From positions 1 to 25,680 of the forward strand of contig DASTAO010000076.1 in assembly GCA_035712525.1 (NCBI GenBank): a DNA stretch of 25,680 nucleotides. The letters are read 5' to 3'. A program made the position numbers and the translations under genes. Below, piece by piece: positions 22,073 to 23,580 of this stretch (positions are counted from its first letter, which is position 1; every line of letters starts with the position of its first letter). The notes under the pieces were generated by a model that was not told the DNA's origin, searched no databases, and saw only the letters and a program-made list of their open reading frames with translations. Source of the DNA: Candidatus Kapaibacterium sp. GTDB taxonomy: Bacteria; Bacteroidota; Ignavibacteria; Palsa-1295.

Positions 22073-23131
22073 CTAAAACAAGTATTGCACTCCACCCATC
22101 ATCCGATAACTTTCTCCAAGCTGCGTACCGCCAAGATAATGGTATATCGGCAGATGATAGCTTGCTTCGAAGGAGATTCGCTCAGAGGCGATCCACTGTA
22201 CACCGGGCGATAAATAGAGCACCGAACCCCCCGAATCATCGAGCAACGTACCATCCTGTGTTTCTTTTGCCCGAAGTTCTCCGCAGAGGCCAAGTGTTGC
22301 GGCAAGTGTAGAAAAATTATCTTCCGATGCGAGAATTCTATACCGGCCAGTCAGATCGGCATTGATGTAGTTGCCGAATCGATGGCCGCGAGCTCCGGTA
22401 CCGGGAAGTGAGCCGAGGATATTTGTTGCGATCGTTGTCCGGTCGAGCGTCCAGAGTAGGCTCGTGCCAAGCACGATATCGGTCGAACCGCTTCCAGGTT
22501 GAAGATGGGAATCGAGATACTCTCCATCATGCATGAAGTCGGTACGGCCGGTTGGCAGCTTCACACCGGCAGAGAAGGAAAGGATTGTCATTGCCGAAGA
22601 ACCAGCCGAGATCACTTCCTCTTCGCCAGAACTTTCTGAAAACTTAATGGCCGTATAGCGCATCATGGCAATGATATCACCTAAGCCATAGGAGCTGACA
22701 TGTTCGGTCATGCCGCTACCGGTCATGACCATATCATGCTGCACTTGTGGCTGCTTCGATGAGCTTGAGATCATGGTGCTATCGCCTTCCAGTGGTTCTT
22801 CGGCCGAGCGAACGGTGATCGGTACCATTACCACAGCAGTGAGGGCTTTCGATATTCTGTAGAAGCCAGTGAACTGATTTGTAAGATAAGATTCGGTAGC
22901 CGAGGTTGTAGGTTGCTTTACGGTACCGCTATACGGTGTTCCTAAATAAAGCGACCGAATATCCCACCTGATGCCCGAAGAGCCCGCTTCAAGCGGCGAG
23001 ACGCCCTGAGAAGCAATGCAATAATCACACTTGGAGATCGGTGATTGCGGTAAGCTCGACGAACAAAACTGCGCCATTGCCGATGAACTATAAAATACAA
23101 CAAGTACTAAAAAAATAAAAAAGATTTTCAT
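22073..23131 (-). CDS. Putative outer-membrane beta-barrel with N-terminal C-x11-CxxC and a His/Met-rich loop
   Basis: Signal peptide (..AMAQ), FCSSSLPQSPISKCDYC, QHDMVMTGSGMTEH, GLGDI, GVKLPTG, LQPGSGSTD, terminal ..QYLF. Confidence 0.75.
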   Translation of the reverse strand: MKIFFIFLVLVVFYSSSAMAQFCSSSLPQSPISKCDYCIASQGVSPLEAGSSGIRWDIRSLYLGTPYSGTVKQPTTSATESYLTNQFTGFYRISKALTAVVMVPITVRSAEEPLEGDSTMISSSSKQPQVQHDMVMTGSGMTEHVSSYGLGDIIAMMRYTAIKFSESSGEEEVISAGSSAMTILSFSAGVKLPTGRTDFMHDGEYLDSHLQPGSGSTDIVLGTSLLWTLDRTTIATNILGSLPGTGARGHRFGNYINADLTGRYRILASEDNFSTLAATLGLCGELRAKETQDGTLLDDSGGSVLYLSPGVQWIASERISFEASYHLPIYHYLGGTQLGESYRMMGGVQYLF

Positions 23132-23167
23132 AGGAAAACTGTGAGAAAATATGAATTAATAACTACG

Positions 23168-23188
23168 ATCGAAAGCCTTGCTTTCGAT
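23168..23188 (-). promoter_or_regulatory. Perfect 9-bp hairpin between the upstream ORF and the barrel gene
   Basis: ATCGAAAGC-(3 nt)-GCTTTCGAT; not followed by a U-tract on the minus strand. Confidence 0.55.
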
Positions 23189-23223
23189 TTGAAAATAATA
23201 ACTAGAAATGGGAAGGAAGCCGG

Positions 23224-23580
23224 TTAAGCTTTCGGAGGACGGAAGGGTGAACTGGTTATTCCTGATAACAGATCAAACGGTTCGTCCGCTATGACAAGTT
23301 GTTGTTTCGGTTTACTGGTTGAAAGAACAAATTCGCAGGTGAGTGTTGGCTGTGTCGGGGGAGTTTGAATTCTGACTCCCGATTCCTCAGAATTTCCGGA
23401 CTGACCGGCTGCCTTTTTTACCTGGCATTTACCCTGGCAGCAGGGCTTCGTTGGGTTTTCGCAGCGGCTGGCAAAGAAATCCTTCGCAAAGGTCGAATAC
23501 GAAAACCATAGCACCGGCGCACCGTTATAATACAGACCCAACGAGAGTAACAGCGCAATATGTAAGAGATTACGGTGCAT
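23224..23580 (-). CDS. 118-aa Cys-motif membrane protein ending in FRPPKA (candidate DUF2946/CruR-like regulatory upstream ORF)
   Basis: Likely start ATG 23580 (ORF track: GTG 23646). N-terminal hydrophobic segment, CENPTKPCCQGKC, C-terminal SSPFRPPKA; 92 nt upstream of the barrel gene. Confidence 0.7.
   Translation of the reverse strand: MHRNLLHIALLLSLGLYYNGAPVLWFSYSTFAKDFFASRCENPTKPCCQGKCQVKKAAGQSGNSEESGVRIQTPPTQPTLTCEFVLSTSKPKQQLVIADEPFDLLSGITSSPFRPPKA

Follow-up and report, generated by a model that had tools for sequence, protein, structure and literature searches.

The discovery that a nascent chain can sense periplasmic copper and thereby regulate genes is recent, and to our knowledge this mode of regulation has so far been described for two DUF2946 proteins of Proteobacteria only. 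One of them, CruR of Bordetella pertussis (Bp2923, DUF2946/PF11162), has an export signal, a CXXC motif, and an RAPP sequence three residues before the stop codon; its gene stands first in operons linked to copper, where the intergenic regions are long, and the 45-residue spacing between cysteine and proline, held within 1–2 residues in DUF2946 proteins, is needed for regulation (Roy et al., 2022; PMC9426467). In vitro work has demonstrated that CruR arrests at RAPP (PMC12992588). The other, CutF of Rhodobacter capsulatus, combines CxxxC with PPP, is sensitive to elongation factor P (EF-P), and opens a stem-loop over the ribosome-binding site of cutO (bioRxiv 10.1101/2025.02.05.636593). A 2025 survey reported no copper-related RAPP/RGPP upstream open reading frames (ORFs) from Bacteroidota (PMC12992588). 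The DNA analyzed here, a 25,680-nucleotide (nt) stretch of Candidatus Kapaibacterium sp. (Bacteroidota; GCA_035712525.1, contig DASTAO010000076.1) referred to as the window, encodes on its minus strand a small protein of 118 amino acids (aa; 23224–23580, the “leader”), followed after a gap of 92 nt by an outer-membrane β-barrel protein of 352 aa (22073–23131), an arrangement verified by translation. The most likely arrangement is an operon of leader plus target, and by analogy with the systems above we lean toward the view that the leader is a metal-sensing, ribosome-stalling switch for the downstream barrel gene.

The locus resembles that of CruR in that a small exported protein comes first in an operon with an outer-membrane transporter, a long intergenic region separates the two, and the leader has a conserved cysteine motif together with a Pro-Pro pair near the stop codon (tail of three residues in CruR and two in the window). 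The analogy was first drawn in a reading of the sequence alone (hereafter the original prediction), which listed a membrane segment, C-x6-CC-x3-C, an FRPPKA end, and a 92-nt gap for the leader, and a signal peptide, C-x11-CxxC, and a Met/His loop for the barrel. All of these features are present, on the minus strand. The likeness to CruR and CutF is upheld by the export anchor, the invariant cysteines, the Pro-Pro pair, the fixed spacing between them, the position in the operon, and the convergence of other Pro-Pro leaders, while three details of the proposal required correction.

The N-terminus of the leader is a signal-anchor or transmembrane (TM) segment (residues 5–28; 23497–23568, minus strand, as are all coordinates of the two genes below), as indicated by hydrophobicity, charge bias, and an AlphaFold2 (AF2) model. 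This is the single hydrophobic segment of the family, with a flanking charge of +2.5 on the N side and −0.35 on the C side, and 95% of 149 members obey the positive-inside rule. The predicted orientation is N-in/C-out, and the cysteines are therefore expected in the periplasm. In the window, the cysteine motif (CENPTKPCCQGKC, residues 40–52; 23425–23463) reads C40-x6-C47C48-x3-C52. An alignment of 144 family members (mean column identity of 19%) and a position-specific logo show that only C40, C48, C52, P115, and P116 are invariant, with G50 nearly so. The fourth cysteine of the window protein, C47, is not conserved, and the family pattern is thus C-x7-C-x3-C. The motif is presumed to be a periplasmic metal or redox sensor. 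It differs from the CXXC of CruR, but its second cysteine pair, C-x3-C, has the CxxxC spacing of CutF (PMC9973294), so that the pattern is less novel than the original prediction had supposed in calling it different.

The C-terminus of the window leader is …SPFRPPKA (…LLSGITSSPFRPPKA), in which the two prolines (CCT CCG at 23233–23238) are followed by K, A, and a TAA stop codon (23224–23226). Across the family, a Pro-Pro pair lies within nine residues of the stop codon in 150 of 153 sequences; the remaining three lack the C-terminal motif at their ends and appear truncated. The pair stands 2–5 residues before the stop codon in 140 of the 153 (tails of 2, 3, 4, and 5 residues in 62, 38, 30, and 10 sequences, respectively), and Pro-Pro elsewhere in the family is rare (22 in 17165 other positions). 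A second pair at residues 74–75 of the window protein (QTPPTQ, 23356–23361) occurs only there and in a 93%-identical relative, and was rejected as a family feature because it is not conserved. The 12-residue logo anchored on the C-terminal pair reads L L x G x x x S [IV] F [H/R/P/Q] P P [R/K], whereas about 45 positions ahead of this block carry only 0.3–0.6 bits each. In the window this is the arrest-like motif LLSGITSSPFRPP (residues 104–116; 23233–23271), delimited by the logo, the invariance of the prolines, and codon usage. Across 38 loci, each position of the pair is encoded by any of the four proline codons; therefore, selection acts on the peptide rather than on the RNA.

The residue directly before the pair is His in 75, Arg in 24, Pro in 19, and Gln in 14 of the 150 sequences (His in 49% and Arg in 16% of members), and the residue before that is Phe in 101 of the 150. 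The original prediction had named RPP as the motif and its lack of conservation among homologs as evidence against stalling. As worded, that test has a divided outcome, in that the two prolines are invariant and the expected C-terminal xPP is conserved, but the arginine is variable and the conserved unit is F-x-PP within the 12-residue motif. The leader is comparable with the RAPP/RGPP arrest peptides (ApdA, ApdP, and SecM-like; PMC10987492, PMC12992588) as a small secretory or membrane protein with a proline motif near its C-terminus, upstream of the gene presumed to be regulated. Unlike in those peptides, the essential Arg two residues before the pair is replaced by Phe, so that F-[H/R]-P-P stands in place of the R-A-P-P of CruR. 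With CutF the family shares a C-terminal, purely proline motif lacking the RAPP arginine, and this putative stall site may likewise be EF-P-sensitive. CutF is, however, a DUF2946 member with PPP, which is found in only 19 of the 150 sequences. Both EF-P and Rho are encoded in the window’s genome.

The distance from the last cysteine to the first proline has a median of 65 residues (interquartile range of 64–66, range of 60–74; 146 sequences) and is 62 residues (C52 to P115) in the window protein. The intervening linker (residues 53–103; 23272–23424) is poorly conserved in sequence but conserved in length, as seen in the family spacing, the logo, and the AF2 model. A tight spacing across a variable linker is also a property of CruR, although the distance is about 65 residues here rather than 45, and, as a further difference, the signal anchor here looks uncleaved. 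The AF2 model of the leader, made from a deep alignment, has helices at residues 2–38 and 51–63 and no regular structure at residues 64–118, with a predicted template modeling score (pTM) of 0.41. An in-frame extension upstream of the leader (23581–23646, starting from GTG at 23646; HRQSERKRIE..FCSTNS) has amino acids conserved in the closest relatives (P0004 and L009). It is probably conserved promoter or 5′ untranslated DNA and not coding sequence because stop codons interrupt it in more distant orthologues.

A word-seeded search identified only six relatives of the leader. Full-length orthologues are present in 7 of 61 related genomes, spanning three genera, and in all seven loci (based on ATG-initiated ORF calls) a homologue of the barrel lies 3′ of the leader on the same strand at a distance of about 40–170 nt. 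A profile of 15 leader sequences searched against 1.84 billion cluster representatives matched 3223 clusters at E ≤ 1e-3, all of which are about 115–135 aa long and align end to end. The window leader has all five invariant columns of this unnamed family, whose profile it seeds. Within the Bacteroidota, the profile matches 124 of 401 sampled genomes and 61 of 180 genera, often with 1–3 copies in each. By ORF call, orthologues, and profile search, the small ORF is a real and widespread gene from a large, as yet unnamed Bacteroidota family, and together with the C-terminal Pro-Pro pair this conservation far exceeds what is expected by chance.

No Pfam or NCBIfam model matched the window leader or ten sampled family members, and a literature search found no publication describing the family. 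The original prediction had suggested a search with DUF2946; PF11162 gave no match at E ≤ 1 for the window leader or 10 other members, nor any match in the window’s genome. A comparison with hhalign between the 144-sequence family alignment and seven DUF2946-like RAPP leaders of Bacteroidota returned a probability of 1.1%. Membership in DUF2946 was rejected on the basis of these Pfam scans and hhalign, and the window family, in contrast to its similar architecture, has no detectable sequence homology to CruR. Two families suggested by the ESM Atlas, DUF6660 and DUF6769, were dropped (few common features, 90–94 of 256, and no Pfam match), and a match of one family member to TRASH_ZMYM4 (E 0.022) is below any threshold. 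Interpretations as a precursor of a ribosomally synthesized and post-translationally modified peptide, an anti-sigma factor, or a sorting signal were also dropped, because modifying enzymes, sigma factors, and TM-plus-basic tails are all absent. Genuine RAPP/RGPP-ending, His/Cys-rich DUF2946-like leaders do occur in 7 of the 401 sampled Bacteroidota genomes (L117–L123), with ends such as …QPLRAPPHNA, …SRAPPVG, and …HRGPPIILG. Both leader types are accordingly present in this phylum, with the FHPP type (124 genomes) far commoner than the RAPP/RGPP type.

In every locus examined in the three genera, the leader is followed on the same strand by an outer-membrane gene. The same order is found in 28 of 29 phylum loci of the wider family, and the 29th locus ends 45 nt past the stop codon of the leader. 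In the window and the six orthologous loci, the downstream gene encodes a PF13557 barrel. In the 28 Bacteroidota loci, it encodes a TonB receptor (Plug; 13 loci), MbnP (8), a barrel with an N-terminal cysteine cluster (4), or a YtkA-like lipoprotein (3), at a distance of 40–238 nt and on the same strand. Several of these downstream proteins carry their own N-terminal cysteine clusters (CDYC, CFACAACGC, and CNCGC), as is often the case. With the thioredoxin-fold (AhpC/TSA) genes described below, the TonB receptors and MbnP are operon partners shared with CruR. The window differs from the CruR operons in its Bacteroidota host and in its presumed target, where a 12-strand PF13557 channel takes the place of a TonB receptor. 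In three loci of a single genus (L096, L105, and L112), the gene downstream of the leader encodes an unnamed, outer-membrane-like protein of 347 aa, which has the mature N-terminus CFACAACGCSLSS and no Pfam match.

The presumed regulated target in the window is an outer-membrane β-barrel channel of the PF13557/COG4313 type, based on Pfam, AF2, and its homologues, which number more than 516. The protein matches PF13557 (Phenol_MetA_deg) with an E value of 2.7e-5 and 24.8 bits (gathering cut-off of 22). An AF2 model from 20 homologues, with a predicted local distance difference test (pLDDT) value of 76.6, has a 12-strand barrel fold. In a Foldseek search with this model, the COG4313 channel 4rl8 was the top match (E 3.9e-11), with FapF also among the best matches in the Protein Data Bank (PDB), and the model superposes on this channel (Pput2725, PDB 4rl8) with a template modeling score of 0.69–0.71 normalized by target length. 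Unlike Pput2725, the subfamily to which the barrel belongs has an invariant periplasmic N-terminal sequence, CD[YF]C-x2-SQG[IV]SP, and His/Met-rich loops.

The signal peptide of the barrel ends with AMA at residue 20 and is followed by C23-x11-C35DYC38, which places CDYC (residues 35–38; 23018–23029) at the mature N-terminus. When 20 diverse homologues are aligned, C35 and D36 are invariant, and so are Q42, G43, and P46 in the neighboring SQG[IV]SP, whereas near invariance (≥90%) is seen for C38, His209, His250, and His331. The Met/His-rich insertion QHDMVMTGSGMTEH (residues 131–144; 22700–22741) lies in the long loop after strand 3 according to the alignment and AF2, although residues 116–139 have a pLDDT below 50 and the insertion is therefore modeled with low confidence. 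Both C23 and this loop are restricted to the closest relatives, and distant homologues have HxHxH-like stretches at the loop site. The richness in Cys, His, and Met emphasized in the original prediction is thus a conserved property with respect to CD[YF]C but a lineage-specific one with respect to C23 and the Met/His loop.

The association between barrels and Pro-Pro leaders is also visible from the side of the barrel. Among 63 distinct metagenomic loci encoding a CD[YF]C barrel, 29 have an upstream small ORF with a Pro-Pro pair among its final 20 residues; in 25 of these, the pair is located 1–4 residues before the stop codon; as background, 56 of 893 ORFs have a pair within the last 8 residues. 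The leaders of L012, L013, and L055 belong to the window’s family. The other barrel-linked leaders include two Cys/His-rich groups with the consensus ends …PLEGPPKIL and …NEHPPK[AY], neither of which has a Pfam match. Comparison of the window family and these two groups by hhalign yielded probabilities of 29% (signal region only), 0.7%, and 0.9%, which is no detectable homology. The neighbors of the barrel include thioredoxin-fold AhpC/TSA genes (8 of 82 neighbors, in 8 metagenome loci), TonB receptors, TonB, a CopD protein, and NikR_C. A set of four genes recurs in L026, L030, and L070, comprising a His/Cys-rich leader ending in Pro-Pro, a CD[YF]C barrel, an AhpC/TSA protein of about 177 aa, and a TonB-dependent receptor. 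In L029, the position directly upstream of the CD[YF]C barrel is occupied not by a small leader but by the gene (2062–3888) for a 609-aa CopD-domain protein with an HDHMH stretch.

The 92-nt intergenic region between leader and barrel (23132–23223) was characterized by sequence, motif scan, and folding. It contains neither a Shine-Dalgarno sequence nor, in the motif scan, the promoter motif TAnnTTTG. Folding identified a perfect 9-bp hairpin (ATCGAAAGC-AAG-GCTTTCGAT; 23168–23188) with a weak U tail, located 35 nt past the stop codon of the leader and 36 nt ahead of the barrel ATG, which is a possible attenuator. The start region of the barrel gene is AU-rich, unpaired, and outside the hairpin. 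CutF acts on a periplasmic multicopper oxidase by way of a stem-loop in which the Shine-Dalgarno sequence is hidden, whereas the region here has neither such a sequence nor a hairpin over the start; a CutF-type stem-loop hiding the barrel start is unsupported, as the only stable hairpin ends 36 nt before the ATG. Hairpins are found in the same region at other loci, and several are terminator-like. The last codons of the leader, CCG AAA GCT (23227–23235), have a repeat of 7 nt (CGAAAGC) in common with the hairpin’s 5′ arm (23180–23188). An erm-like alternative pairing of this repeat with the 3′ arm is probably due to chance because the local 9-bp hairpin is much more stable.

These features suggest a mechanism in which sensing, as in CutF, would occur through co-translational export. 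The formation of a peptide bond between two prolines is intrinsically slow. The leader would be held by its signal anchor while the three invariant cysteines emerge from SecYEG on the periplasmic side, and at that moment the ribosome, about 65 codons further on, would reach LLxGxxxS[IV]F[H/R]PP[K/R], 2–5 codons before the stop. A distance of about 65 residues from the peptidyl-transferase center to the cysteine motif would approximate the span of the exit tunnel and SecYEG, leaving the motif exposed beside its own anchor. The state of the cysteines, metal-bound (most likely with copper) as opposed to free or disulfide-bonded, would alter the pull on the nascent chain, which we infer would set the dwell time of the ribosome at the Pro-Pro pair. 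While halted where the leader ORF ends, the ribosome would then control the channel gene 92 nt downstream. The likeliest output would be transcription termination in the intergenic region, either Rho-dependent, as in CruR, or hairpin-dependent. Remodeling of mRNA structure, as in CutF, would be less likely because the hairpin leaves the AU-rich start, which is free of a Shine-Dalgarno sequence, uncovered and because there is no common structure among the loci. Copper is favored as the metal owing to the MbnP, CopD, and YtkA neighbors, the CruR-like synteny, and the Met/His loop of the window barrel, although nickel or zinc is possible.

Several observations weigh against this mechanism. The intergenic regions fold with z below −1.5 in only 11 of 30 loci, no RNA structure common to the 30 regions and no conserved element linking the stall site to the downstream gene were found, and the window hairpin begins 35 nt after the stop codon without covering the start of the barrel gene. 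The co-transcription of leader and barrel is an assumption, and the identity of the metal is deduced from neighboring genes only, among which NikR_C occurs near two barrel loci. In Escherichia coli, F-[H/R]-PP-[K/R] would count as a weak stalling context. Nor is it among the strong, EF-P-resistant arrest cores, RAPP and RGPP, that were tested in PMC12992588. Within the leader itself, two helices, one at the N-terminus and a Lys-rich one that follows the cysteine motif, are conserved beyond the needs of an export signal, and the AF2 model has pLDDT values of 80–89 over the helices and 80–86 over the C-terminal coil, so that a stable folded or membrane-associated protein would also fit. The leader could accordingly be a periplasmic metal or thiol protein anchored in the inner membrane and acting in trans, either as a Cu(I) relay or as a thiol-disulfide partner of the Cys-headed proteins encoded downstream, in which case F-H-P-P would be structural or would bind a protein. 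This is rather unlikely in our estimation, despite the strong conservation of the TM and amphipathic helix (at N, Y/F, and I positions) and of the CxGKCxLxKxL helix, the confident local model, the frequent N-terminal cysteine clusters of the downstream proteins, and the thioredoxin-like genes 3′ of the barrel in eight metagenome loci. A specific partner predicts a single downstream family, yet there are at least four unrelated ones, and the linker is fixed in length but free in sequence. Moreover, the Pro-Pro pair lies 2–5 residues from the stop codon, unrelated groups of leaders converge on the same arrangement, and the pTM of the model is low, with no secondary structure past residue 63.

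A leader with two functions, the nascent form regulating in cis and the released form binding metal in the periplasm, would combine the evidence for arrest with that for a protein acting in trans; it is improbable, as CutF and CruR were shown to act as nascent chains only. The least probable explanation, to which we give very little weight, is that the two genes are transcribed independently and have no regulatory link, so that the hairpin at 23168–23188 is merely the terminator of the small gene. The terminator-like form of this hairpin and the hairpin-plus-U-run elements at several other loci are compatible with this, but the U tail in the window is weak, no TAnnTTTG motif is present for the barrel gene in the intergenic region, and the order of leader and outer-membrane gene holds at all loci examined in three genera and in 28 of the 29 phylum loci. 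The cis-acting, ribosome-stalling leader is thus the reading we prefer.

The opposite strand beside this module encodes a 769-aa protein (19068–21377, plus strand) with a C-terminus that by eye resembles a type IX secretion system sorting domain. Also on the plus strand is a 98-aa protein (21407–21703), which by eye is a zinc-ribbon protein (CxxC…CxxC) with a Ser/Thr/Lys-rich tail.

Judging from the sequence comparisons, the architecture of CruR and CutF is one that this family has reached independently. A broader proposition, on which we are evenly divided, is that the family represents a phylum-wide, non-DUF2946 class of extracytoplasmic metal-sensing arrest peptides in Bacteroidota and neighboring phyla, with an F-H/R-P-P core lacking the RAPP arginine, a longer ruler of about 65 residues suited to a signal anchor, and, where Shine-Dalgarno initiation is largely absent, an output by transcription termination instead of the unmasking of a ribosome-binding site. 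The same logic would have evolved at least three further times before the CD[YF]C channel, which would make nascent-chain metal sensing general and repeatedly invented. Leaders of this family, which roughly one in three of the sampled Bacteroidota genomes encode, have the same architecture as the known copper leaders but differ from them in proline motif and are unrelated in sequence, and may fill the role of copper leaders in this phylum. If the leader stalls ribosomes as proposed, it would close the gap in copper leaders in the Bacteroidota and establish an arrest sequence of a new kind, without the “irreplaceable” arginine. A direct handle on how a phylum with unusual translation initiation controls its uptake of copper or other metals would also be gained, and the large CD[YF]C subfamily of PF13557 channels would receive its first functional context, namely metal traffic.

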